Below, piece by piece: positions 29,881-52,191 of a stretch of DNA of 64,000 bases. Source of the stretch: Sulfolobales archaeon HS-7 (GTDB taxonomy: Archaea > Thermoproteota > Thermoprotei_A > Sulfolobales > Sulfolobaceae); contig AP024596.1 in the NCBI GenBank assembly GCA_019704295.1, positions 64,001 through 128,000 on the forward strand. Reading direction: 5' to 3'. Both the position numbers and the translations under genes were made by a program. Below the pieces are notes generated by a model. The model had not been told where the DNA came from and did not search any database. It saw only the letters and a program-made list of their open reading frames with translations. Positions within the stretch are counted from its first letter, which is position 1; every line of letters starts with the position of its first letter.

Positions 29881-30543
29881 TTATGATTTCAGAGTTGCAT
29901 AAAGAACTTCTACGCTTACAGTCCCTTCCTCAAGGTTATCTAGAATGTCGTCTGTAAAGAGTATAATATCCTTAAATTGAAGAAGGCTCACCACGTCTAT
30001 CTCCGACTCTATTTCGTAAAGTTTGAGGAGGAGGGTGTCCTTGATCTCGTCTCCATTTCTCTCTAACATCTGTATTTCCCGACCTAATTTTATTGCCCTC
30101 CTTATATCGTGATTAAGGCTATTTACTACATCAACCATTTTTGACGTAGCTTCAGACACTATTACTAAGTAAGCCTCCATTTGATCACCCATTGATTGAA
30201 GGCATTTTTCTGAAACTCTTCTAGTTACGTAAGCCCTAGCTGTGTCCTTTATCGCCTTTGATGTGTAGTAGAGCGACTGCGTAAGCATGACCATGGACTC
30301 CTTGAAATCTGGAAGAAACGCCTCTCCGAAAAGCAAAGACATAACGTCCTCTCTCTCCATCGCAACCCGTTCGTAGGCAGATCTTATCCTCACGGAGTTA
30401 CCTATCGAGTCGTTTTTGTCTCCATTTCTAACTCCCATATAGAGACTTCTGAGAGAACTACTCATTTCCTTTAATGAGACCGAAATAGCTAATAGCCTCT
30501 TGAAGATCTCGTCCTCTCTAGTTATTTTAAATATCCTTACCAC
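29881..30543 (-). CDS. DUF47 / PhoU-like phosphate transport regulator
   Basis: All-helical; LERNGDEIK...DDILDNLEE pattern. Confidence 0.75.
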   Translation of the reverse strand: MVRIFKITREDEIFKRLLAISVSLKEMSSSLRSLYMGVRNGDKNDSIGNSVRIRSAYERVAMEREDVMSLLFGEAFLPDFKESMVMLTQSLYYTSKAIKDTARAYVTRRVSEKCLQSMGDQMEAYLVIVSEATSKMVDVVNSLNHDIRRAIKLGREIQMLERNGDEIKDTLLLKLYEIESEIDVVSLLQFKDIILFTDDILDNLEEGTVSVEVLYATLKS

Positions 30544-38046: not shown

Positions 38047-39067
38047 GAAACTTCTCCTTCTAACTTTCGCACTGGTTTCGGTTGCACCCCTAACATACGT
38101 AGGAACTGTGACAGGTTTCACGAATGGGCTGTTAGGAGGTCTCCTTTCGCTATCTTACTTTGTAGTGATTTACGTTCTCTTTACCAAGAAGGGATGGAAA
38201 AGTACGGGTTTCTATGGTTACCTTGAGCAAAATAAATTCCTCGCAACTCTTCAGACGTTATCTTGGATCGGAAGTTATTCGTTATATGTTATCTATACGC
38301 CTTATTATATTTCCCTATACGTTCTTGGCTTATCGGGTATGTCGGCTATATTACTCTCCGTGATACTGTATTTCGTATCAGCAGTAATAGTGAAGTCGAA
38401 ATACGCTTACTACTCCTTAATTCCGATAGCTGTAGTTAATGTAATAGGTCTAATTTTTCCTAGAATTTCCTTTTCCACCTCATTACCCACAGTTAACGGG
38501 CTGTTGTCTGCTTCCCTTATACCTGTTTGCATAAACCTGCTACTCTATAACAAAGGGGATAAGACAGACTCATGGGTAGTTCTCCCAGCATTCGTGCTAT
38601 CCTTTATAGGGATAATTATCGCTTCACTATCCCACTATACAGCTCCCGCCTTCTCCTATCTTTTGGGAATATCAAACTTAGGACTCATATTGGCGGAGTT
38701 CATAGCCTTACGCAATCTCATCAGTGGAATTACAGTGAAAGGAGATACATTTTTCAACGTGCTTATCCTTATCGGAGGAGTGGTAACTTTAATTGGTTCG
38801 ATTAATCCCTACGCTTTTTATCAGCTGACTATTGTTCCCTCCCTAACATTACTCTACTTCTCGTTAATTCTGGGTTTCGGATTTCTTGGAACTTTTCGTA
38901 GGGTTTTCCTGTTATCTTTTATACCTGCATTTCTCTTCGGTTACGGTCTGTACTCCGTTATTTCAACGGCATCCGGCATACTTCTGTATGAGAGCCTCTT
39001 CTCAATGCTCATAATTTCAGGCTTATCTGTTTCACTATATCTTATGCAGTCCAAGATGACGGATTAG
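38039..39067 (+). CDS. Hypothetical polytopic membrane protein (permease-like)
   Basis: 342 aa, about 11-12 hydrophobic segments. Confidence 0.7.
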   Translation: MSRKLLLLTFALVSVAPLTYVGTVTGFTNGLLGGLLSLSYFVVIYVLFTKKGWKSTGFYGYLEQNKFLATLQTLSWIGSYSLYVIYTPYYISLYVLGLSGMSAILLSVILYFVSAVIVKSKYAYYSLIPIAVVNVIGLIFPRISFSTSLPTVNGLLSASLIPVCINLLLYNKGDKTDSWVVLPAFVLSFIGIIIASLSHYTAPAFSYLLGISNLGLILAEFIALRNLISGITVKGDTFFNVLILIGGVVTLIGSINPYAFYQLTIVPSLTLLYFSLILGFGFLGTFRRVFLLSFIPAFLFGYGLYSVISTASGILLYESLFSMLIISGLSVSLYLMQSKMTD

Positions 39068-39347
39068 CTGCCTTTTCCCTTTTCTTATGTCTATTCTTTG
39101 AATCTATTGCTTCAAGAATGAGCCATAGTTCTGACGCGTCGCGTGTCTTCAGAATCTCCCATATCCTCTTAGCCGTCTTATTAAACCCTATCGGGATCAG
39201 GCCGTGGCTGGTAATGAACTTAATCTCGCAAATCTTACCGTATAGGTAAGCTAATTCCACGCTCTTAGGATTACCGTTAAAGATCTCCATCAGTAAATCC
39301 CGCCCTATCACATCTGCTCGTACGAAAATTTCCTTGTGTGTCCTCAT
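39042..39347 (-). CDS. Hypothetical protein
   Basis: 101-aa ORF; ATG has a TATA-like cttataag about 25-30 nt upstream (leaderless arrangement). Confidence 0.45.
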   Translation of the reverse strand: MRTHKEIFVRADVIGRDLLMEIFNGNPKSVELAYLYGKICEIKFITSHGLIPIGFNKTAKRIWEILKTRDASELWLILEAIDSKNRHKKREKAANPSSWTA

Positions 39348-39543
39348 GTTTAATATAATTGATTAAAATTCCTTATAAGGCGGAGTACGAAGTGTTTTAA
39401 TAGATTTGCCTACTACTCATCTTACCTAGTTATGTTATATAAAGTGAGTGCCTCAGTATTTCCCTGAGGTCCTCTGTTTGATATCTCTAAGTATCTCCTT
39501 TTGGCTCTCCATCAAGTCAATCTCCATAATGTTGTAGATTTTA

Positions 39544-39695
39544 TCACGTGTTCATTACGAATTTAGTTTATTTAGAAAAATAGAATGAATTTGATTGAAT
39601 GTCGTTGTGTGGACTAGGTAGAGATTCGCACTTAACAATTTCTTTTATTTAATTGCAATTTGCAATAATTACAATTCGCAATGGAAGCTGAATCG
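39544..39695 (-). mobile_element. MITE family B, copy 1 (~152 bp)
   Basis: Reverse complement aligns end to end with 54087-54239, including exact blocks aaattcattctatttttctaaa and aatctctacctagt; has its own imperfect TIRs (core cattgcgaatt). Confidence 0.8.
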
Positions 39696-39702
39696 CCGCA
39701 CC

Positions 39703-40638
39703 CTATAAAGATTCGAAATAATCTTTATCTATTTCCTTCAAAGAGTAACTCTGAATTTCTCTGACACCTACCATATTTTCGATCATTAATGACGCCAATT
39801 GAATACCATCAATGAGAATTATAATGTGGTCAGAATCTTTTTTAGCCGTCTCTATGGCTTCTTTGCTAAATTTTGCCGTAGTTATAAATATCCCCTTTTT
39901 GGCATGTTTAATCGTTAATGCACCTATGAAGTCCCTTATTTCTTTAGCTCCCACAGTTTGGTTTCTATTCCAACGCTTTGCTTGAAGGTATATCTTGTCA
40001 AATCCTAATTTATCTTGTGAAATTTCGCCATCGATTCCTTGGTCATTCGGTTGGCCAAGAACATTTGCCAATTCCTCGAAATTCTTTCCATATCCTAATG
40101 CCAATACTAGGTCTATTATAATTCGTTCAAAATCGGCTGGTTTTACATTCGATAAAACATTTAGTAAATCATTCGCTAATATCTTGTCTCTTTTTTTGAA
40201 AATCTCGGCAATTTCTTCATCGGGAGTAGATTCAGGTTCTTTCATTTCTTTTTGATAATTGGGCTTGTTCCTTCCCTTATTTCGCTTTGTTCCTATGAAC
40301 TCGACAAACGAGGGGAACTTTTCCAAATAAGTATAACGCACTCTCTCCGGAATAATCTTTGCCTCATTTTTCCCCTCATCAGAAATCTTGTACTTCGAAC
40401 GTCCTGTTCTGATTAAAAGGCCAGCCTGAACTAAGTAGGTGATGGCCCAGGATATCCTATCATAAATATACGTTCTCGTACCATTTGGCATTAGGCGATT
40501 CCTCTGCTCTTCATTTAGATTAAATTGCCTTGACATCTCTTCAATGGTTTCAGATAAGTCGTGCTCCTTACCATCACTGGCAAATCTTAATATGGGGGCT
40601 AAAAACTCATCAAATCTTGGTAGATCTATTTCCGTCAT
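39703..40638 (-). CDS. mrr: Mrr type IV (modification-dependent) restriction endonuclease
   Basis: Mrr N-terminal wHTH (PILRFASDGKEH...DRISWAITYLVQAGL) and catalytic domain FE..I.DL...LGYG, DQGIDG...YLQAKRW, GIFITT, LIDG. Confidence 0.93.
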   Translation of the reverse strand: MTEIDLPRFDEFLAPILRFASDGKEHDLSETIEEMSRQFNLNEEQRNRLMPNGTRTYIYDRISWAITYLVQAGLLIRTGRSKYKISDEGKNEAKIIPERVRYTYLEKFPSFVEFIGTKRNKGRNKPNYQKEMKEPESTPDEEIAEIFKKRDKILANDLLNVLSNVKPADFERIIIDLVLALGYGKNFEELANVLGQPNDQGIDGEISQDKLGFDKIYLQAKRWNRNQTVGAKEIRDFIGALTIKHAKKGIFITTAKFSKEAIETAKKDSDHIIILIDGIQLASLMIENMVGVREIQSYSLKEIDKDYFESL

Positions 40639-41010
40639 TCAATCTTCACCTTTGTCTTATCATACGTCTTTGTGGTCTTGGCTTCTTTATTTTCTTTTGT
40701 CTATACCATAACGTAGATTTATTCAGTTTCCAGAAATTCCATTGCTGAGTAATCTACAACGGAACAATTCCTGTAGATCGTAAACGAGAGGCCCTACGCG
40801 CTTCGTCCCTAACACAGTTATGGGGATAAAGAGTCCAGAACCACCTACATCAACATGACAGTCCTTAACGTTCTTAGGCTTAGGTAACTTGGACTTACTC
40901 ACGACTAAACCCTTATACACCACCTCTGTAATAACGTGGTCACTGACGCTAGTGCTTGATTTTCCCCGTGGAAGAAGCCTAAACGGATTGAACATCTTCG
41001 CCAGCCTCAT
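40635..41010 (-). pseudogene. cas1: Decayed casposase-type Cas1-solo fragment
   Basis: Collinear frameshifted blocks LAKMFN, SVSDHV, PLVYDLQELFR (40759-40791), VDYSAMEFLE, NKSTLWYRQKKIK (from 40723 downward), EAKTTKTYDKTKVKIE-stop. Confidence 0.75.
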
Positions 41011-41353
41011 AGGTCTATCTTATAAAATTCAGCGGTTTATGACCCTCAAGAACGTTGAACTCTAAGCTAAAACCTCGCTAGAAAAGCTCGTTGCTAGCCT
41101 TGATTATCGAAAATCACAAAATTATTTGTGATTATATTTAATAAATTAATTTTATATTATTGTTCTCCTCGTAATTAAACGAATTTGATTCTAGACTAAC
41201 GTGTTTATAATTTTTTACTTTATCTAGTTAATTACATTAATTATACATTGAACATTTTCACGTTTACCACCAGATGAGAAAGTGGATAATAGAATCACCT
41301 TTATAATATATATCTGATAAAGTTTGAGTCGTCAGTGAATAAAATTGTGGACA

Positions 41354-41524
41354 ATGGCATTACTAGGAGGGTTAGTATTAGAACAGTATTGGTACTTATT
41401 CGTAGTTATTGCCCTGATCCCGTTCATTATAGGGATAGTCTTTGGAATTGTATTGCCCGCGTTTCAAGAGAGACGTAGTAAACCTGTGAAGAAACCCCAG
41501 GTTAAGAAGAAAGCCAAAAAGTAA
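41354..41524 (+). CDS. Small membrane protein with Lys-rich tail (56 aa; not in ORF track)
   Basis: MALLGGLVLEQYWYLFVVIALIPFIIGIVFGIVLPAFQERRSKPVKKPQVKKKAKK; AT-rich promoter region upstream. Confidence 0.65.
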   Translation: MALLGGLVLEQYWYLFVVIALIPFIIGIVFGIVLPAFQERRSKPVKKPQVKKKAKK

Positions 41525-41577
41525 TATAGGAAATTTCAACTCTAATTTATAATCCTGACGAACTATCACAGTAGTTA

Positions 41578-43653
41578 ATGAAAAGAACGGATGTGGTTGA
41601 ACCTCTTCGAGGAAGAGGAGGATTTGTGGACGATTTCGACTATAAGGGAAAATACGTTTCGTTTGTAAGGAGTCCTTATCCACACGCAAGGATTTTGAAG
41701 ATCGATTACACCGACGTTACAAGAAAAGGGGGACACGTTTTTACCGGTAAGGATATCCGACTCTCCGCTGTGAGAGCGGGAGAAAGGGAAGGAGGTGAAA
41801 CCTCTTCAATTTTAGCTAGGGACAAGGTAAGATACCTAGGAGAACCCGTAACAATGATTGTAGGGGACGATCCCTATCTACTTGAGGATTTAAAGGAATT
41901 AGTTGTAGTTGATTATGAGCCTCTCGAGCCTATTTCCTCCATAGAAAGGGCACTTAAAGACGACGTATTAGTATTCGAGAATTTAAAATCGAATTTGGTG
42001 CTTAGCAGGGAAACCTCATTTGGTTCCCTCCCAAAGAATGATAAACAGATAGAGCTTGAACTTTACTGGTCTAGAAGCTCTGGAAACCCGATCGAACCCT
42101 ACGCTGCAGTTGTTATTCCCCAAGGGGACTCATTAAAGATAATATCTAATCAGCAAGCCCCTTATGCCGTTATTCAGGAAGTAGAGAAAGCTGTTGGCGT
42201 TAAAATAAATCACATCCCTGCAAGACATGGTGGAAGTTTCGGCGCTAAATTCTCCCTTTCTAAATACCTGACCGTTCTAGCATACGCCTCTAAAAAACTG
42301 GATCTACCTCTTAAGTGGATCGAGACCAGAACGGAACATTTGCTCGCCTCTAACTCCAGTGGGCCAGAAAGGAAGTTCAAGGCTAGAGCGTACTTTAAAC
42401 CTTCAGGTGAGGTCACTGGACTGGACTTCGAGATATGGGAGGATATCGGGGCGTCCACTTTTGCAGGACAGCCATTCAAGCCTACCGGCATCTTAGCAGG
42501 TCCTTACAAAATAAGGAATATCAGGTACTTAGTAAATCTAGTGGCCACTAATAAGAATCCTCCTGGTGCATTTAGAGGAGCTGGTACTCCTCCTCATACT
42601 TGGGCTTTAGAAAGGGTCATGGATAACATAGCCGACGAATTGGGTATTGAACGCAGTACCGTAAGAAAGATTAACTTAATCGACTCCTTTCCATACGAAG
42701 CCCCATATGCAGTATACGAATCGGGTAATCCGAGAAAATTACTGGAGCTGGCTCTATCAAGGAATGACCTTTTCTCGCTTCGTAATAACAATATAGGTGT
42801 AGGTATAGCAACCTCGACAGATCCCAGTACACCCTCGGGTTCTGAGGGAGTCAGACTGTCAATTAAGAATGGAAAAATCGTCATAGGTCTAGGATATGGC
42901 CCTGAGGGTCAGGGAAATGAGGACAGTGCGCGGATCTTAGTGTCGAAGTTTCTAGATATACCGATAGACATGGTGGAATATCAGATAATGGATAACATGA
43001 CAGCACCGCAGTCATTCGGACCAGGCGGAAGTAGAATGGCGGCTTTCCTGTCAGGCGCAATAGCAGGAGCTAGTGAGGAATTATTAGCGAGACTCAGAAG
43101 AAAGGCCTTCTCAATACTAGGTGAAGGGTTGGAGTACAAGAGCGGTCATTTCTATAACGATAGGGGAAAGCTATCAATAACCCAACTCGGGGAGGAGAAT
43201 GTGGATTTCATATTCTCCTTGCAGAGTAAAACTAGGTTCAATGCCTATCCCTTTGCATGCGACGTTGCCGTTGTTAGAGTAGACGAGGATAAGATAACGC
43301 CAATCAAGCAGGTCGTATACATTGATTCAGGAGTTCCGATAGATGAAGATCTCGTAAAGGAACAGGTAATAGGAGGGACCGCAATAGGCATTTCCCTAGC
43401 TCTCTATGAATCATATAAGTACTCAGATGACGGATACCTCTTAACAACATCCCTTGCTGATTACGGAATGCCCTCAGCCGCTGACCTCCCAGAAATAGAG
43501 GTCAACATTGAGTATACCCCCTCTACGTCAAACCCTTATGGCGCAAAGGGAATAGGGGAGATCCCTGTAGGTGTTGCAGCTGCGGCGGTAACCAGTGCCG
43601 TAGAAGACGTAATAAAAAGGAAAATCACCAAGATACCTATAGTGCCCCTCTAG
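41578..43653 (+). CDS. Xanthine dehydrogenase-family molybdopterin-binding large subunit (CoxL-like, not form I CODH)
   Basis: VRSPYPHA, GGSFGAK, GAFRGAG, GPGGSR, EQVIGG, GAKGIGE. Confidence 0.9.
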   Translation: MKRTDVVEPLRGRGGFVDDFDYKGKYVSFVRSPYPHARILKIDYTDVTRKGGHVFTGKDIRLSAVRAGEREGGETSSILARDKVRYLGEPVTMIVGDDPYLLEDLKELVVVDYEPLEPISSIERALKDDVLVFENLKSNLVLSRETSFGSLPKNDKQIELELYWSRSSGNPIEPYAAVVIPQGDSLKIISNQQAPYAVIQEVEKAVGVKINHIPARHGGSFGAKFSLSKYLTVLAYASKKLDLPLKWIETRTEHLLASNSSGPERKFKARAYFKPSGEVTGLDFEIWEDIGASTFAGQPFKPTGILAGPYKIRNIRYLVNLVATNKNPPGAFRGAGTPPHTWALERVMDNIADELGIERSTVRKINLIDSFPYEAPYAVYESGNPRKLLELALSRNDLFSLRNNNIGVGIATSTDPSTPSGSEGVRLSIKNGKIVIGLGYGPEGQGNEDSARILVSKFLDIPIDMVEYQIMDNMTAPQSFGPGGSRMAAFLSGAIAGASEELLARLRRKAFSILGEGLEYKSGHFYNDRGKLSITQLGEENVDFIFSLQSKTRFNAYPFACDVAVVRVDEDKITPIKQVVYIDSGVPIDEDLVKEQVIGGTAIGISLALYESYKYSDDGYLLTTSLADYGMPSAADLPEIEVNIEYTPSTSNPYGAKGIGEIPVGVAAAAVTSAVEDVIKRKITKIPIVPL

Positions 43654-43656
43654 CCC

Positions 43657-44034
43657 TTAGAAGAAAAGCGATCTGTCAGCATCTAATGTAAGGTCTATGA
43701 GCGTGGAACCCCCTACTATACTTACGTCAGATATTACCTGGTCTTCTCTCATATGGCACATATCCTTCAAACTCTGAATACAAACGTACATTTTAACTCC
43801 GTTATCTTTTGCCATATCAAAAAACCTGATAAACGGGTTATCCCCTTTTTTCCTCTCCTCCTCTTGCCACTTTTTATCTAATAGAAGAGGTCCCTTTATC
43901 ATGAAAAATACTGACGTGTCCATTTCCATGGAGGCTGCTATCGATGCCATAAACATTGGGGCATACGTCCTGTCTATATCCTCTGGACCGTGGGTAACTA
44001 CAATCAATATTTTCTTCTTCTCTTCCTCAGCCAT
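43657..44034 (-). CDS. dsrE3A: Sulfur carrier DsrE3A
   Basis: [20 protein letters not shown]...[11 protein letters not shown]; divergent from dsrE2B-tusA. Confidence 0.9.
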
Positions 44035-44210
44035 AAACTTCACCAAAAAGATGTTACTAATACTAGATTAAATTTCTTTCTTTTAGCATTAACTAGATTA
44101 TGTCATAAACTTTACGAAATTTGTGTAGTAATAAAAATCAATAATATTTTTGTTTATCTAAATAAGGGAAAACTTAAAAATTAATACTCAAATAATGAAA
44201 TGGTGAAAGT

Positions 44211-44633
44211 TTGTCTCAGGACAAGAAAAAAGTCTCAATAATAGTTTTCTCCGGTCAACTGGATAAACTAATGCCCGTTGGGATAATAGCGAGTGGAGCT
44301 GCTGCGAGCGGATGGGAGGTTAATTTGTTTTTCACTTTTTGGGGACTCAACGCGCTAAGAAAGGACATGTTGGAAAAGAACACAGTAATTAGTAAGGAAT
44401 TTGAAAGTTACGCTCCTGCAATAATGGATGCAATGAAGAAAATGAATTACCCTCCATGGTTCGAATTAGTCAAGCAGGCTAAGGAGGTAGGGGAAGTTAA
44501 GGTATTTGCGTGCTCTACTACAATGGAGATGATGGGTGTTAAGAGAGAGATGTTACCAGAATTCGTTGATGACATTGTGGGTGTAGCGACTTTTCTAGAT
44601 AGAGCCGAGGGAGGAATCACCTTATTCATTTGA
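44211..44633 (+). CDS. dsrE2B: Sulfur carrier DsrE2B (DsrE/DrsH-like)
   Basis: SIIVFSG..DK, LFFTFWGL, FACSTTM, VGVATFL. Confidence 0.88.
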   Translation: MSQDKKKVSIIVFSGQLDKLMPVGIIASGAAASGWEVNLFFTFWGLNALRKDMLEKNTVISKEFESYAPAIMDAMKKMNYPPWFELVKQAKEVGEVKVFACSTTMEMMGVKREMLPEFVDDIVGVATFLDRAEGGITLFI

Positions 44634-44634
44634 G

Positions 44635-44880
44635 GTGGTAGAGGTGAGCGTAAAACCTGTGAAAACGGTCGATGCAAGGGGCATGTATTGTCCAGGACCT
44701 GTTATGGAAACTGCAAAGGCAATTAAACAGATTAATGTAGGCGAAGTGTTGGAAATTTTAGCAACGGATCCCGCAGCGAAGCCGGATATTGAAGCTTGGG
44801 CAAGAAGAACAGGAAACGAGATTTTGAATATAGAACAGCAGGGAGATGCTACCAGAATACTTATTAAAAGAGTTAAATAA
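44635..44880 (+). CDS. tusA: Sulfurtransferase TusA
   Basis: DARGMYCPGP, LATDP, DIEAWA. Start is GTG at 44635 or 44644. Confidence 0.93.
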   Translation: MVEVSVKPVKTVDARGMYCPGPVMETAKAIKQINVGEVLEILATDPAAKPDIEAWARRTGNEILNIEQQGDATRILIKRVK

Positions 44881-44931
44881 GAGTTTTTATAATATAAAGG
44901 TTTTTTATATTGTTTGAAAGTACGTTATTAG

Positions 44932-45774
44932 GTGTTTGAGTTGGCCACAGTAAAGTTATCCTTACCCGAGGACCCAAGATATCTCGACATGTCATATGCT
45001 GAGCAAGGACCTCTACCAGAGGAAATGAGAAATTTGGATCAGCTTTCGGAAAAAGATAGAAAACTAGCACTAGAATTTTACCAATCGCTTGCTTCCGACT
45101 TTAGATATAACGAATACTTAAGGGGATGCCTCAATTGCGGGGTTTGTACTTCGAGCTGTCCCGCTGCTAAATTTTACGATTTCGGTCCTCGTGAAATGAT
45201 ACAATACATGATGCGAGGCGAGTACGACAAAATTTATGAGTTCACTAACGAGAAGGTTTGGGCATGTGTCCAGTGCTATACCTGTAGTATGAGGTGTCCT
45301 TTCAACAATGAGATAGCCGGATTGATCATGCTACTGAGGGAGTACGCAGTTAAGTTCGGCTTGGAGTCCGCTAAACAAATACTTGCTCCTTATAGACGAA
45401 TATTGTTAACAGTTCTCACTACGGGTAATCAAGTTACGCCAGATATGATACAACCGGAAACATTTGCGGACTGGGGACCGCAGGCCTTAGAGGAATCAAA
45501 AAACATGGATGTCTACAGAAAAGCTATACCTGTGGACCTAATGCAGAGAACGGATATCGGATGGCATGCCTCCTTACAAACTGCAGTGGAACTCATGACT
45601 ATAATGATTGAAGCCGGGGTTATAGAAAGCCTGAAAAATATTGATAAAGATCTATACGATATGATCATCGACATTTATGAGGAAAGGAAGCAATTCCTTG
45701 AGGAAATAAAGGAGAAATATCAGAAAGGTGAATTAAACGAGGAAGAGCTACCCGATAGCTGGCTAGATTTATAA
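44932..45774 (+). CDS. hdrC1: Sulfur-oxidizing heterodisulfide reductase-like subunit C1
   Basis: Two ferredoxin motifs CLNCGVCTSSCP and CVQCYTCSMRCP; cluster context. Likely TTG start at 44941. Confidence 0.92.
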   Translation: MFELATVKLSLPEDPRYLDMSYAEQGPLPEEMRNLDQLSEKDRKLALEFYQSLASDFRYNEYLRGCLNCGVCTSSCPAAKFYDFGPREMIQYMMRGEYDKIYEFTNEKVWACVQCYTCSMRCPFNNEIAGLIMLLREYAVKFGLESAKQILAPYRRILLTVLTTGNQVTPDMIQPETFADWGPQALEESKNMDVYRKAIPVDLMQRTDIGWHASLQTAVELMTIMIEAGVIESLKNIDKDLYDMIIDIYEERKQFLEEIKEKYQKGELNEEELPDSWLDL

Positions 45775-45902
45775 CATAAAGTTCGTCAGTTGTGCAATTT
45801 ACTCATTTTGTCATTTTTTTGTGATTTAGACAGAAATCATGATATTTTATTAATAAAAACTTTTTAAGTATCAATGATACTATTTTGATTAGGTGAATTT
45901 GT

Positions 45903-47201
45903 TTGGAAAGTTCAGTAGAACAGAACCCTGAGAGGGAGATGGAGAGAGCATTTCCCAATGACCTGGATTGGGAGGAAATATATCAAAGGGTTATTTACAA
46001 GTATAGCTCACCCCATGGTATTCAACATATTAAAGAACTTATGTACAAGCTCGAGGATAAAGGGGAAATTATAGTCCAACACATAAAACCCAGCAATAAC
46101 CCAGTGGAATATCAAACAATAAATGGAAACCCCAAGAAAATTCCAACTACCAAATTGTGGAACCATAAGTCGTGCGGGCAATGCGGACATATCCCAGGGT
46201 ATCCGACGTCGGTTTTCTGGATAATGAATAAACTCGAGACTGATTACGTTGACGAACCACACCAAACATCATGTACAGGTTGGAATTATCATGCCTCAGG
46301 CGCTTCTAATCCCGTTGCACTAGCAGGTGTCATGGTTAGGAATTTCTGGAGAGCCTACGAAATAGATTATTACCCCCTAATTCATTGCGGAACTTCGTTC
46401 GGTCATTACAAGGAAATCAGAAACATGCTAATACTTCACGACGAAGTAAGGCAAAAGCTTAGACCAATAATGAGAAAACTTGATATGGACATAGTGATCC
46501 CTGAAGAAATTGTTCACTATAGTGAGTGGCTTTACGTAAATAGCAAAAGGGCTGCGTCTCATAAGAGATACGACCTGTCTGAAATAAAGGCCGCGGTCCA
46601 TACGCCATGCCATGTATATAAGTTAGTACCAGATGATACAATTTACGATCCAATAGTGTATCAGGGGAGAAGACCAGCAGCACCTACCGGAACAGTGATT
46701 AATTTCGGTGCAAAACCAGTGGACTACTCCACATGGTGGGACTGCTGTGGTTTCGGATTCAGGCATATACTTACTGAGAGGGAATTCACGCGATCTTTTG
46801 CACTTTTCAAAAAGGTTGTCCCAGCAGTAGAGGAAGCAAATGCTGACGTGTTTGTCACAAGCGATACTGGATGTGTTACTACGCTTGACAAGAGTCAGTG
46901 GGTTGGCAAGGCCCATGGATACAACTATAATCTCCCTGTTTTAGCTGACGCTCAGTTCGCAGCACTTGCTATGGGTGCTGATCCATATAAAATAGGTCAG
47001 ATTCATTGGCATGCTACAGACGTCGAAGGATTCCTAAGGAAGATAGGGGTTCCCATCCAGGAGTATAAGGAACAATTTATTCAATATCTTCAAGATATTA
47101 AAGAGGGAAAGGCTGAAACGGAGTTCCTCTATAAACCTCATAGGAAAATAGACTTTTACTTAGCCCTTCCTGACAGAGTTCAGTATGAAAGACCTCAATA
47201 G
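45903..47201 (+). CDS. hdrB1: sHdr subunit B1
   Basis: KSCGQCGHIPGY, TSCTGW, HCGT, DCCGFGF, DTGC (CCG domains). Confidence 0.93.
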   Translation: MESSVEQNPEREMERAFPNDLDWEEIYQRVIYKYSSPHGIQHIKELMYKLEDKGEIIVQHIKPSNNPVEYQTINGNPKKIPTTKLWNHKSCGQCGHIPGYPTSVFWIMNKLETDYVDEPHQTSCTGWNYHASGASNPVALAGVMVRNFWRAYEIDYYPLIHCGTSFGHYKEIRNMLILHDEVRQKLRPIMRKLDMDIVIPEEIVHYSEWLYVNSKRAASHKRYDLSEIKAAVHTPCHVYKLVPDDTIYDPIVYQGRRPAAPTGTVINFGAKPVDYSTWWDCCGFGFRHILTEREFTRSFALFKKVVPAVEEANADVFVTSDTGCVTTLDKSQWVGKAHGYNYNLPVLADAQFAALAMGADPYKIGQIHWHATDVEGFLRKIGVPIQEYKEQFIQYLQDIKEGKAETEFLYKPHRKIDFYLALPDRVQYERPQ

Positions 47202-47209
47202 GTGTCATT

Positions 47210-48292
47210 ATGGAGAAGAAAGTATTAGTTATAGGAGCAGGGCCAGCAGGACTTTCAGCCACTAGAGAATTAGTTAATATGGACGTGGATGTAATACTTG
47301 TCGAAAGAGAGGCATGCCTTGGAGGAACACCGAAGAAACTTAATTACAGCCTTCTATTCCCTGAGTTAAGACCCGCTTCAGAGGTAATTGATCCCCTAAT
47401 TAAGGTCGCTAAGGAAAGTCCACGAGTTAAAAAATACGTAAACAGCATAATAGACTCAGTTAAAGAGAGTGAGGACGGATTTGAAGTCTCAATCAAAGAT
47501 AAGGAACAAAAGGTCTCCACAGAAAGAGTTTCGGCAATAATAGCGGCTTCAGGTTTTGAACACTTTGACTCTAGAAGGAAATACGAATACGGTTATGGAT
47601 TAATTCCTAATATATATCAAATCTCCGATATTGAGAGAATGCTAAGTGAAAACAAATTAGTGACGACTCGTGGAGTTCCCCCAAAAAGAGTGGCGATACT
47701 ACTCTGCGTTGGTTCTAGGGATGCAACGGTAGGGAATACCTATTGTTCTAGGGTTTGCTGTGCGGTCTCTATAAAGCAGGCCATGGAGATAAAGGAGAGG
47801 GTACCTGATGCAATAGTACATATCTACTATATGGACATAAGGACGTATGGACTAATGGAAGATAAGCTGTATTGGAGATCGCAATTGGAACACAGAGTGG
47901 GTTACATAAGAGGTAGAATTTCCGAATTCATGAGAGGACCAAACGACACCGTCATTATAAAAGGAGAGGACACTATGAATCTCAACAGAGCTCTTGTTGT
48001 GCCATATGATATGGTTATACTCGCTAACGGAATGGAATTAGGTTTAGGTTCTGCACAGGTGGCAAAGGTCTTAGGACTGCGGTTAGAGGAACACGGATTT
48101 ATAAAACCTTTAGATCCGGATAGACTTCCTGTAGTATCTCAAAGGAAGGGAGTATTCCTGGCGGGTGCATTAACGGGACCGAAGACAATGTCGGATTCCA
48201 TAACTGAAGGTCAAGCTGCAGCCATGAAAGCTTACGAATACGTAACGAAGGGTATATGGGAATACGAAGAGATAAAGGTGACTGCACATTAA
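47210..48292 (+). CDS. hdrA: sHdr flavoprotein subunit A
   Basis: VIGAGPAG, CVGSRD...YCSRVCC, YMDIRTYG, GVFLAG...GPK. Confidence 0.95.
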   Translation: MEKKVLVIGAGPAGLSATRELVNMDVDVILVEREACLGGTPKKLNYSLLFPELRPASEVIDPLIKVAKESPRVKKYVNSIIDSVKESEDGFEVSIKDKEQKVSTERVSAIIAASGFEHFDSRRKYEYGYGLIPNIYQISDIERMLSENKLVTTRGVPPKRVAILLCVGSRDATVGNTYCSRVCCAVSIKQAMEIKERVPDAIVHIYYMDIRTYGLMEDKLYWRSQLEHRVGYIRGRISEFMRGPNDTVIIKGEDTMNLNRALVVPYDMVILANGMELGLGSAQVAKVLGLRLEEHGFIKPLDPDRLPVVSQRKGVFLAGALTGPKTMSDSITEGQAAAMKAYEYVTKGIWEYEEIKVTAH

Positions 48293-48344
48293 GCAGACAC
48301 TGAATTTAGTTGACATTCATAGTATTACCGAAATTTATAATGCA

Positions 48345-49025
48345 ATGATGGCCAAGGACATAAAGAACACTGGAGGAAATCCAAAGGAATCGATAGAAAT
48401 AATTAGAAAAGCCATGGAAGTTAAGAGCGATTTACTGAAAAATAAGCGAATTTCGAGTGCTAAAGACGTAATGGAAATTTTTTCGATGATATTTTACCTG
48501 AGGAGAAGTGTAAATTCAATAGTGGAGCAGAATAGTATCGCGGAAATCGCGTCAGCTATTGAGAAACTAAGGGATACATCCCTTCCATACGAGGAAAGAG
48601 AAAAGGCATTGATCACTGTCAAGGGGGCTGAAAAAGAGGACTTAGAGGACGCTTCTAGAGAGATAATTCACTTTATCCAACCAGGGGTTTATCCGCTTTG
48701 GACAAGATGGATATGGAATCCTATGAGGAATACAGGTTCACTTACCTACGTTCTTAAGGAGGGTGTAAGGCTAGAAAATAAAGAGCAACTGTTTTCTGCA
48801 TTTAATGAAATCAGAACTGTTCTCGAAACGTTTAATCTAAACACAGGTAACTACTACGGCCTCTCCATATTCTTAGTTTACGCGTATGTTAGGTACTTGG
48901 ATTACACCACACTACTCGCAGTTGATAAGAAGGCAGCAGGACTTCTTCCAACCCACCTAAGTACAACGGCGATGGTGTTAGGGGTAAAACAGTTAATAAG
49001 GGGGATCAATTACGCCAATAGCTGA
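48345..49025 (+). CDS. Conserved sHdr-cluster hypothetical protein (sHdrH)
   Basis: Position between hdrA and hdrC2; YPLWTRWIW motif. Confidence 0.8.
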
Positions 49026-49701
49026 AGTCGAGAAGAAAATAATCAAGGGGTTAATAGAGAAAGATAAGGTAATAGTTGACGGTGTGGAAGTTGATGGCAC
49101 ATGGAATGCATTCATCATAGACAGGACTCAAACTGGCTTTGATACGTCTGTATGGGATAAAATAGCCTCAACAGTAGAAGGTAATACGATCAGTCTGTGT
49201 TGGCAATGCGGAACATGTACTAGTGGTTGTACGGCGCGTGAATACGACCCCAATTTCAGTCCGCGGAGATTTATCGATTTAGCAAGGAAGGGAGATAAGC
49301 AATCATTACAGGAACTGGAATCTAGTCTATGGAGATGCTTCTCGTGCCAGAAGTGCACACATAGATGCCCTAAAGGCGTACTTGTGGAGGAGGTAGTTCA
49401 CGCCATTCACAACTACGCTCTGGAGGAAGGCTTAGTCAGAAAAGATCCAGGAACTAAGTTTGATGAGCTATTCCTAAAGGCCGTTATGGATAACGGAGGG
49501 AGGATTTCTGAATTACTCCTAGGTTCTATGGCGGCGAAATACGGTATGGTGTCGTTAAGCCTTAAAGATCTAATCAACGTTTCGTCTGCTCTTCTTAAAA
49601 CAGGTCTGATAAAAACTGTAATGAATCCGGAAAAAGTAAGAAACTGGGAGAAGATTAGAAAAGTATTGGAAAATGCAATGAAGGAGGAGATTAAACTATG
49701 A
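49012..49701 (+). CDS. hdrC2: sHdr subunit C2 (probable ACG start at 49012; track start 49084)
   Basis: [11 protein letters not shown] and [12 protein letters not shown]; open in-frame extension (M)[23 protein letters not shown] preceded by SD-like aggggg. Confidence 0.9.
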
Positions 49702-50606
49702 CCGAAACCTATGGAAAAGTCGCATTCTATCCGGGATGTGCCCTCGACGGGCTGGGAAAGCCTTATGAGGTTTCAATTCAATTGGTTGCTAACGATTTAG
49801 GTTTAAAGTACGAGAGGTTAGATGACTATAATTGCTGCGGTGCACTCGAAGTTAAGAACGTAAACACAATGGCAGGTTTCCTATTACCAGCAAGAAACCT
49901 CTCCTTGGCAAATAGGGTAAAAGCGAACACGGTAATGTCGGCATGCCCAGGTTGTCACTACTCCCTATCAAGGACTCACTACTTCATGTCCAAATACGTT
50001 AAGGTTAAGGATAGGGTCAACTTCTACCTAAAAGAAATGGGAGAACTTCCATATGAGAACAACTTATTTATGATCCATGTAGTTGAATTCATTAGGAACG
50101 CTTTCGGACCTGAAAAACTTAAAGCAATTGTAAAGAGACGGTTCGATGGACTAAAAGTTGCACCTTATTATGGTTGTCTCTATGTGAGGCCGAAGCAATA
50201 TCTTCAAACTGGGTATATGAAAATTAAAGACGATCCTGAGAGACCGGTTTTCATGGACGAGCTACTACAATCGATAGGAGCGGAGCCGGTCCAATTTGAG
50301 GCTAAGGTGATGTGCTGCGGTGGTCCACACGTATATTCCGACGCCGAAACCTCAATGCATTTGGAGGCAAGGATCATAAAGGAGGCAGTCAGGAACGGTG
50401 CTGAACTGCTTATCACGGACTGTCCATTAGGACATGTTGCAATAGAGACTAACATGACAAAAATTGAGAAAAAATACGGCGTAAGGATATCTCTAGTTTA
50501 CTTTACTCAGTTACTGGCGCTAGCATTGGGACATTCCCCAGAGGAGGTAATGTTAGATGCTAACATCACAAGACCAATGGACGTTCTCAAAAAATATTTA
50601 CGATGA
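49698..50606 (+). CDS. hdrB2: sHdr subunit B2
   Basis: YPGC, NCCG, CPGC, YYGC, MCCG, DCPLG. Confidence 0.93.
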
Positions 50607-50651
50607 AAGGATTTATAAAAAATGAAGAGTAGAGAGGAGTGGTGAGAGAAT

Positions 50652-51095
50652 TTGGTAGTAGAAGCTGGGTGTGAGATTCCTGAGGATCTAAGTTATTACA
50701 TAGAGGGTAAAAACACTGTATGGGTAAAGCCTGAGGGCGACGTGATAATTGTCGGTATAACTGATATTGCCCAAACTATGGCTGGAAAAGTAGTAAAGGT
50801 AAGGGTAAAGAGGAAGGGAATAAAGGTCGATAAGGGGAGACCAGTAGCGACTATGGAGAGTGGTAAATGGGCAGGACCTGTACCTGCGCCCGTGTCAGGG
50901 GAGGTGATCGAAGTAAACGAAGCTGTTGAGAAAACTCCTGTTATCGTAAATCAAGATCCTTATGGAAAGGGATGGCTGGTTAAGATTAAACCAAATAGCT
51001 CAGATGAGGTAAAGCAGCTATTATCAGGTCAACAGGCTCTTGACAAGCTAAGGCAGATAATATCATCTGAAAAAGTTCAGTGTAAGAGGCTATGA
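50652..51095 (+). CDS. lbpA: Lipoate-binding protein LbpA (GcvH-like)
   Basis: VGITD.AQ..AG, lipoyl site ESGKW, N.DPYG.GW; follows hdrB2. Confidence 0.88.
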   Translation: MVVEAGCEIPEDLSYYIEGKNTVWVKPEGDVIIVGITDIAQTMAGKVVKVRVKRKGIKVDKGRPVATMESGKWAGPVPAPVSGEVIEVNEAVEKTPVIVNQDPYGKGWLVKIKPNSSDEVKQLLSGQQALDKLRQIISSEKVQCKRL

Positions 51096-51096
51096 T

Positions 51097-52191
51097 ATGA
51101 GCTGGAGGTACGTCAGGTTACCTCCTCAAGATCCTTATCATATGATTACATCTTTTCTGGCTGTAGGGGATCACGTCTCAAAAGGTACTAAAAACACCAT
51201 GTTAGTTTTTAACTCTTTGGAAACATTCGTTAATGTCGGTTTCCATCAAGAAGTATGGCTTGAAGTAGATCTGGATTACGTAAGGAAAAACGGAATACCT
51301 GTAGTTAGGAGGGATGTCGGAGGGGGAACAGTGGTGATTACCCCTGGCGAGGTAGATTACTTCCTGGTTATGAAAAGCGAAGACGCTCCAACAAACCAAT
51401 CGGAACTCTATAAAAAGTTCTTAAGCCCAGTTGCTAGTTTCCTTAATTCTTACGGAGTAAAAGCGGAGATCAGGGAGCAGGATATAGTAGTTGGAGGAAG
51501 GAAAATAAGTGGAAACGGCGCTATGACACGAGGTAAGTCAGTTATCCTTGCTGGAAACGTTTTAGTTGACGTTGACGTAAACGTTATTGCTAAGTGCCTC
51601 AGAGTTCCCAGTGCGAAATTCAGGGATAAACTAGCTAAGGAAATGAGTGAATGGATAACTAGTATGAAAAGGGAAACAGGAAAAACGCCATCTGTGGAGG
51701 AGGTTGCAAAAGGGTTGAAAAAAGCATTTGAAGAGGCGGGTTTTTCATTTTCTGAGGAGGAGCTAACCGAGGATGAAGTGAGAGATTGGAACCGCTTGGC
51801 AGAGGAGAAGATGAGGGAAAGCTGGATATACTATAAGGATTTAAGACATCCCGAATTAAGGAGTGAAAGATGCGTTAAAATAAACTTCTCAGTGACGTTG
51901 TGTCATGTCGATTATAAGGCAAGGAAACTGATAAGAATTACCGCTAAATTCTCTAAGGAAAAAGTAGAAGAGGTCTCTATATCAGGGGACTTCTTCGTTT
52001 TAACTCCTAGAGATTTCGTTGAGAGATTAGAGGATAGAATAAGGGGAATAAGGGTCGGGGACATAGAACAAGTTATACGAGATACGTTTAACGAATTCCG
52101 CCCCACAATATTCGGATTTGACGAGAACGATTTAATTAACGCCTTTAACGAGATGTTGATAAAGCCTGAAGTACAGGAAATAATTAGTTAG
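51097..52191 (+). CDS. Lipoate-protein ligase (sLpl(AB)-type)
   Basis: [19 protein letters not shown]-terminal ISGDFF domain. Confidence 0.88.

Follow-up and report, generated by a model that had tools for sequence, protein, structure and literature searches.

The window analyzed here, a stretch of 64,000 nucleotides from the genome of the Sulfolobales archaeon HS-7, contains an mrr gene on its minus strand, and the DNA upstream of this gene was read in a first-pass annotation as a broken casposase. The locus raises the question of whether a casposase once stood in front of mrr in a member of this order, where the pair came from, and what the host has kept of it. The window genome is a single 2.15-Mb contig with 91% completeness and 0% contamination. 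Its RNA polymerase A'' subunit scores 545–557 bits against PDB entries 2pmz, 3hkz, 2y0s, and 7ok0, which are Sulfolobales enzymes, and 374–394 bits against the archaeal entries ranked next, in agreement with the assignment to the order. The relevant features are listed below in window coordinates.

39544–39697, no strand assigned: host MITE-like repeat of ~154 bp, with 79 BLAST matches in the genome
39703–40638, minus: intact mrr, a gene for a type IV (methyl-directed) restriction nuclease of 311 residues with Mrr_N and Mrr_cat domains
40635–40729, minus: C-terminal, HTH-coding tail of the casposase relic (nhmmer E 1.6e-7, genome-wide), residues ~383–413 of the casposase of L003, a complete related element
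40646–40650, minus: Shine-Dalgarno-like GGTGA for mrr within the last casposase codons, retained, of putative function
40661–40666, minus: position of the TATA-like box of related casposase tails, decayed in the window
40723–40791, minus: core fragment of the casposase relic (nhmmer E 1.5e-7), residues ~259–282 of the L003 casposase
40789–40984, minus: truncated element of the IS110 family that comprises the C-terminus of the transposase and the right end, with 29 BLAST matches elsewhere in the genome, the best at 81%
40985–41263, plus: right end of a host IS of 1.3 kb (14-bp TIRs; weak match to DDE)

Casposase pieces among host insertion sequences

A DNA profile built from three near-complete casposase genes, with the window left out, was searched across the 2.15-Mb genome. 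It matched exactly two pieces, at profile positions 775–848 and 1151–1242, and the next match had an E value of 4. In the profile, 303 nt separate the two pieces, which adjoin each other in the window; this confirms the large internal deletion proposed earlier, and a short GAAA microhomology is present at the join. The core fragment (40791–40723) reads PLVYDLQELFR and, after a 5-nt deletion, VDYSAMEFLE. The tail (40729–40635) is frameshifted with a net loss of one base, and its stop codon overlaps the ATG of mrr. Neither the 303-nt nor the 5-nt deletion was found in any of the 15 related loci tested. With an X placed at the break, the relic pieces are 79% and 84% identical to casposases of 390 residues, including proteins of Thermogymnomonas, Cuniculiplasma, and Caldiplasma, and the alignment scores exceeded those of all 300 shuffles. 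The casposase-derived DNA totals ~150 bp (40635–40791). About 55 of 390 codons are left, with three indel lesions, and the locus thus encodes no full-length, integration-capable casposase; a casposase with a C-terminal HTH is represented only as a relic, by the core piece and the HTH tail.

All six motifs of the first-pass annotation were found in their places on the minus strand. PLVYDLQELFR, VDYSAMEFLE, and the HTH tail are of casposase origin as claimed, whereas LAKMFN and SVSDHV belong to host IS DNA; a search of the genome against itself showed that most of the supposed relic region is repeat DNA. LAKMFN (41004–40987) is an antisense reading of the end of the 1.3-kb IS. SVSDHV (40950–40933), the counterpart of SISYHV in IS110, lies at the C-terminus of an IS110 transposase, for which a genomic copy bearing PF02371 gave 50% identity (E 2e-13); positions 40789–40984 gave no match to the casposase profile. 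This stretch is a fragment of an IS110 element, a group characterized by a Transposase_20/DEDD transposase, the lack of TIRs, and a conserved end. That end is GCCT or a close variant in 22 other copies among the matches listed, and in the window the GCCT coincides with CCT, a Pro codon of the casposase. Therefore, the casposase gene that the IS110 element entered was longer when it arrived than it is now. The end of the 1.3-kb IS now abuts the truncated IS110. On the other side, the MITE-like repeat ends 6 nt past the mrr stop, at the position of a type IIG restriction-modification gene in the relatives. Copies of this MITE-like family also occur in other genomes of the family, and its parent element was not found.

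Several other candidates were discarded. The 95-residue ORF at 40723–41010 is an IS110/casposase chimera and was rejected as a gene; searches of it against Pfam, NCBIfam, and the PDB returned nothing useful. Positions 40951–40984 were rejected as a casposase GFLH motif, since the score of 35 lies below the shuffle maximum of 44 and the segment aligns with IS110. Weak casposase-like words at 881.9 kb and 1406.2 kb of the genome had no significance.

The pieces are short, Pfam is blank on the 95-residue ORF, and searching the genome for the Cas1 family does not recover the relic, all of which could point to a CRISPR-associated Cas1 or to chance. However, half of the relic is the C-terminal HTH, which is unique to family-2 casposases (PMC4046053). 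The homology to L003 also runs continuously from the casposase tail through mrr (65% identity over 1047 nt), and the shuffle test already refuted chance similarity. No cas gene was found among the ORFs at 30000–52000 and no repeat array in 38500–42500, so the cas2 or array context of a CRISPR Cas1 is missing at this locus, and the CRISPR-type cas1 of the host sits elsewhere in the genome. We regard this explanation as practically eliminated, and the family-2 casposase origin that had been proposed stands on the profile matches and the HTH tail.

The mrr gene and its casposon-borne relatives

As claimed in the first-pass annotation, mrr is intact. Both domains of the product scored above the curated cut-offs, and it matched the PADLOC type IV REase with an E value of 1e-71. 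The 936 bp contain no indel and no stop. Mrr enzymes cut methylated DNA. The D-x-x-x-D...QAK motif is intact in the window and invariant in ten aligned members of its clade, the window included; we take the residues of the D...QxK motif to be catalytic. The window Mrr is accordingly predicted, from family membership, to be a methylated-DNA nuclease. It resembles the Mrr proteins of Escherichia coli K-12 and Haloferax volcanii in its Mrr_N winged helix, its Mrr_cat nuclease domain, and its length (~310 residues). It differs from them in that it is casposon-borne and belongs to an acidophile-archaeal clade, which is ~42% identical to the outer Mrr matches, the named ones being bacterial. Deletion of mrr in H. 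volcanii lifts a barrier to methylated plasmids (PMC11033074).

Comparison with the three nearest copies gave dN/dS values of 0.11–0.13. On the window branch, there are 41 synonymous changes on 190 sites and 32 non-synonymous changes on 743, a ratio of ~0.2 that also covers the time spent in the donor. At least five genes for N4/N6 methyltransferase-like proteins are present in the genome, and Mrr, if active, has to tolerate their products.

The overlap of the relic stop with the mrr start is real, an ATGA at 40638–40635 on the minus strand. The final relic frame is open for only ~21 codons, and its sole start is a GTG four codons ahead of the stop. The relic is thus untranslatable, and the translational coupling that had been suggested for the present day survives as geometry alone, the fossil of an ancestral arrangement.

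The ancestral arrangement is found intact in donor-type elements, in which the casposase, mrr, and type IIG genes form a single row that includes the same ATGA overlap. A search for intact casposase–mrr pairs with TIRs, target duplications, and polB had been suggested as a check; pairs with TIRs, a TSD, and a polB-like gene do exist. L003, from a Thermoplasmata MAG, is a complete element. Its 76-nt TIRs start GGGGATATA, and its TSD of 14 bp lies at the 3' end of tRNA-Val. It carries genes for a polB-like protein, an HNH protein, an HTH protein, a casposase, Mrr, and a type IIG restriction-modification enzyme. The casposase has 413 residues (PF01867, E 2e-57; best PDB match 6opm, E 5e-76), and its stop overlaps mrr. 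The 883-residue polB-like ORF has exonuclease DxET, DxxSxYP, and DTDS motifs and gave no Pfam or PDB match to PolB. In its casposase HTH, its HNH and HTH genes, its TIRs, and its 14-bp TSD at a tRNA 3' end, L003 has the characters of the family-2 casposons, which include AciBoo-C1 of Aciduliprofundum boonei and the source of the Methanosarcina mazei casposase (PDB 6opm); its polB-like ORF is a candidate for their family B polymerase. L003 is a good candidate for an active element. L003:1997–13781 also encodes a 459-residue ORF with weak similarity to PDC-M36A. L136 and L137 likewise hold an intact casposase–mrr pair, in L136 beside tRNA-Pro.

Methyltransferase and restriction cargo has been described for family-2 casposons (PMC4046053). 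The open-access papers searched contain no Mrr and type IIG cargo overlapping a casposase stop, and no report of casposon-borne Mrr or of casposons in the Sulfolobales. The casposase–mrr–type IIG cargo arrangement of the donor-type elements is unreported in this literature.

Related loci show further stages of decay. In L064:9353–10939, a tRNA-Pro is followed directly by a TIR start, a casposase tail of 270 bp, and mrr, which makes it a casposon reduced in place at its target. In L066–L069, the mrr start is ACG at the ancestral position, with the frame, the GGTGA, and the TATA-like box kept, which may be a non-canonical start. L131:7509–20459 holds a Marsarchaeota G1 Mrr of the same clade with only a faint casposase tail, within a defence island that also contains a BsaWI-type restriction-modification pair and a DUF1156/SNF2 system.

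Origin of the locus

The closest Mrr relatives are 84–85% identical to the window protein and include that of L060, a Thermoplasmatales contig. A support tree of 31 rows (LG+G4; short and many unlabelled rows left out) placed the window Mrr as sister, with 99/97 support, to the group of L141, L060, and L061, which holds a Thermoplasmatales-hosted copy, and within a 93/98 clade that includes two Cuniculiplasma copies; a tree of 82 rows served as a quick tree only. Monophyly of the Thermoproteota-hosted copies (the window with those of Marsarchaeota and Nitrososphaerota) was rejected by 252 log-likelihood units (p-AU 2e-46). This grouping indicates that the window Mrr is of Thermoplasmatales origin, in agreement with the donor that had been proposed.

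No Mrr ortholog was found among 324 other genomes of the order, and Mrr_N is present in one of 47 genomes of the family. Searches of 325 genomes of the order recovered no casposase, and the best match, at 69 bits against ~500 for real casposases, was a CRISPR-type Cas1. Viral contigs yielded no relative of casposase or Mrr with the patterns used. In a REBASE survey, type IV genes per genome numbered 0 in 59 Sulfolobales, 0 in 100 Crenarchaeota, and 0.33 in Thermoplasmatales (PMC10609329). None of the outcomes named beforehand as contradicting the proposal (no Cas1-solo match, a CRISPR Cas1 as best match, or a vertically inherited Mrr) was observed.

We consider it probable that the window locus is the last scrap of a Thermoplasmatales family-2 casposon with mrr and type IIG cargo, in which the casposase is dead and mrr has been retained. 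The host has kept mrr open and lost the integrase, as had been stated. After arrival, a host-type IS110 entered the casposase gene; host IS and MITE DNA now occupies the positions of the lost 5' part of that gene and of the lost type IIG gene. Entry of a fragment of a donor casposon, which may already have been damaged, is the most likely route, ahead of a clean casposition. The polB-less casposase element that had been named as one option is not needed: L060 has a TIR start, a 3' fragment of polB, a casposase gene interrupted by stops, an mrr gene, and the beginning of a type IIG-like gene, and is thus a wrecked but ordinary casposon.

A stronger claim would be that a complete casposon integrated actively into a Sulfolobaceae chromosome and was then eroded in place to the casposase tail and mrr. 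The IS110 junction is consistent with it, since the casposase gene was longer at first, and the termini could have been lost to the IS or MITE DNA that now lies on either side of the scrap. Such elements do reach acidophiles of the Thermoproteota. L161:7283–12747 (contig C48 of genome G677, Marsarchaeota G2 by cluster names) is a degraded family-2 casposon with a frameshifted, near-complete casposase ~91% identical to Thermoplasmatales-type proteins, the only casposase in 351 genomes of its class, to which the window host also belongs. It has a polB 3' fragment and oxidoreductase and glycosyltransferase-like cargo, at 30–35% GC in host DNA of 47% GC; with 5% contamination, this genome has to be read with care. 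HTH-type casposases occur in other classes of the phylum as well.

However, the window locus shows no TIR, TSD, or tRNA target, whereas related elements sit at tRNA-Val or tRNA-Pro, and searches past the end of mrr and ahead of the IS end found neither a type IIG remnant nor a TIR. tblastn with the L003 genes found no match to polB, HNH, HTH, type IIG, or other genes anywhere in the genome, and the core set of polB, HNH, and two HTH genes is therefore missing. The lack of casposases in the rest of the order and the wrecked state of the nearest relatives also argue against active integration. We thus judge it rather unlikely; that the host took up a fragment of donor DNA is no less likely. The genes flanking the locus are not adjacent in the relatives' loci examined; therefore, no empty site can be defined. 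Among the neighboring features, a minus-strand ORF of 101 residues (39042–39347) belongs to no family and has one partial relative, a repeat protein of 1054 residues (E 5e-11). Its frame continues upstream with stops; it may be the tail of a pseudogene and is not linked to the casposon. A dsrE–tusA–heterodisulfide-reductase-like–lipoate-binding cluster at 43657–52191 is typical of sulfur-oxidising Sulfolobales and unrelated to the relic.

The flanking of a foreign segment on both sides by multi-copy repeats might also suggest an assembly chimera, in which Thermoplasmatales DNA was joined into the contig through these repeats. However, the identity of the repeats to other copies reaches 80–86% at most. 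For the MITE and the 1.3-kb IS, the only matching loci were from same-family genomes, and no mrr locus from other archaea matched them or the IS110. The IS110 end is fused to a casposase codon at base precision, the nearest Thermoplasmatales mrr is just 85% identical, and the genome is one uncontaminated contig. An artefact of this kind is very improbable.

The locus differs from family-2 casposons in that only ~150 bp of casposase are kept, without TIR, TSD, tRNA, polB, or HNH. The earlier suggestion of a casposase-plus-defence element crossing archaeal phyla holds insofar as a Thermoplasmatales-type Mrr and a casposase relic are present in a Sulfolobales genome, but the passage of an Aciduliprofundum-type family-2 casposon between phyla has already been published for a thaumarchaeal case (PMC6563490). 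That element, NitNCS1-C1 of Ca. Nitrosotalea okcheonensis, is a family-2 casposon of the AciBoo type in a host that is not a euryarchaeon, and its polB is fragmented; unlike the window locus, it still has all core genes and its target at a tRNA-Pro, and the extra gene noted in it encodes a WYL protein rather than Mrr (PMC6563490). Pipolins resemble casposons with such cargo in being PolB-encoding integrative elements with exchangeable defence genes (PMC11551731). The locus combines a small, genuine casposase fossil with a horizontally gained Mrr, both of known families in a new host order. Pipolins are bacterial, encode a primer-independent PolB, and are not known as Cas1-integrase elements.

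Retention of the tail and expression of mrr

Upstream of mrr in 19 related loci, the casposase is intact in two, a significant degraded piece in 12, and absent in five; 11 of the 12 degraded pieces reach the last 30 nt before mrr. The GGTGA site has 4–5 of 5 matches in all 19 loci and is perfect in the window. A BRE-TATA-like box lies ~28 nt ahead of the ATG in most related tails, which is the distance of the TATA signal peak of the host, and 11 of the 17 non-intact loci have a promoter-like site within the top 5% of random DNA at this distance. The promoter model was trained on the window host with crude gene calls. We hypothesize that the tail persists because the last casposase codons hold the ribosome-binding site of mrr and, in the relatives, a promoter. 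The loci are kin, and the TATA-like box is what the codons for K-I-Y-N spell, occurring also in a casposase with other cargo; this reading therefore stays a hypothesis.

In the window, the TATA-like box has decayed to the 55th percentile of random DNA, whereas those of the nearest relatives, L060 and L061, are in the top 1%; expression of mrr is therefore uncertain. A strong TATA-like site, the best upstream, lies in the 1.3-kb IS end at 41218–41203 and faces mrr. Our best guess is that expression, if any, would come from read-through from this IS end, with translation from the retained GGTGA. The gene may have been kept because Mrr cuts foreign methylated DNA such as that of viruses and plasmids.

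The main rival to read-through expression is that mrr is a recent passenger, silent but not yet decayed, and was never domesticated. Among the closest relatives, the box is destroyed in the window copy only, the host has several methyltransferases of its own, and the REBASE survey lists no type IV enzyme for 59 Sulfolobales genomes (PMC10609329). However, the adjacent relic and IS pieces are rich in lesions and ~20% diverged from other genome copies, while mrr has kept an undamaged frame, its catalytic-type motif, and a branch dN/dS of ~0.2. A silent passenger seems unlikely to us, somewhat more so than active integration.

The farthest-reaching proposal is that restriction genes are shuttled across phyla by the family-2 casposons of Thermoplasmatales in acid hot springs, which can transpose into Sulfolobales and Marsarchaeales. 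The HTH-coding tail would double as a promoter and ribosome-binding cassette, so that the first cargo gene would remain expressed and be domesticated again and again on the death of such elements. In this way, the host would have acquired a functional type IV system, of which Crenarchaeota have no other record. We offer this proposal as speculative and improbable as a whole.

The window locus is dead as a transposon, and both of its components belong to known families, which limits the surprise. Within reach of our searches, it holds the first trace of casposon DNA and the sole two-domain Mrr in the Sulfolobales. It provides a testable idea for why casposase tails stay ahead of cargo genes, and its IS scars date a gene transfer between phyla of co-habiting acidophiles. 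In practical terms, a methyl-directed nuclease would be a barrier to transformation in this lineage.
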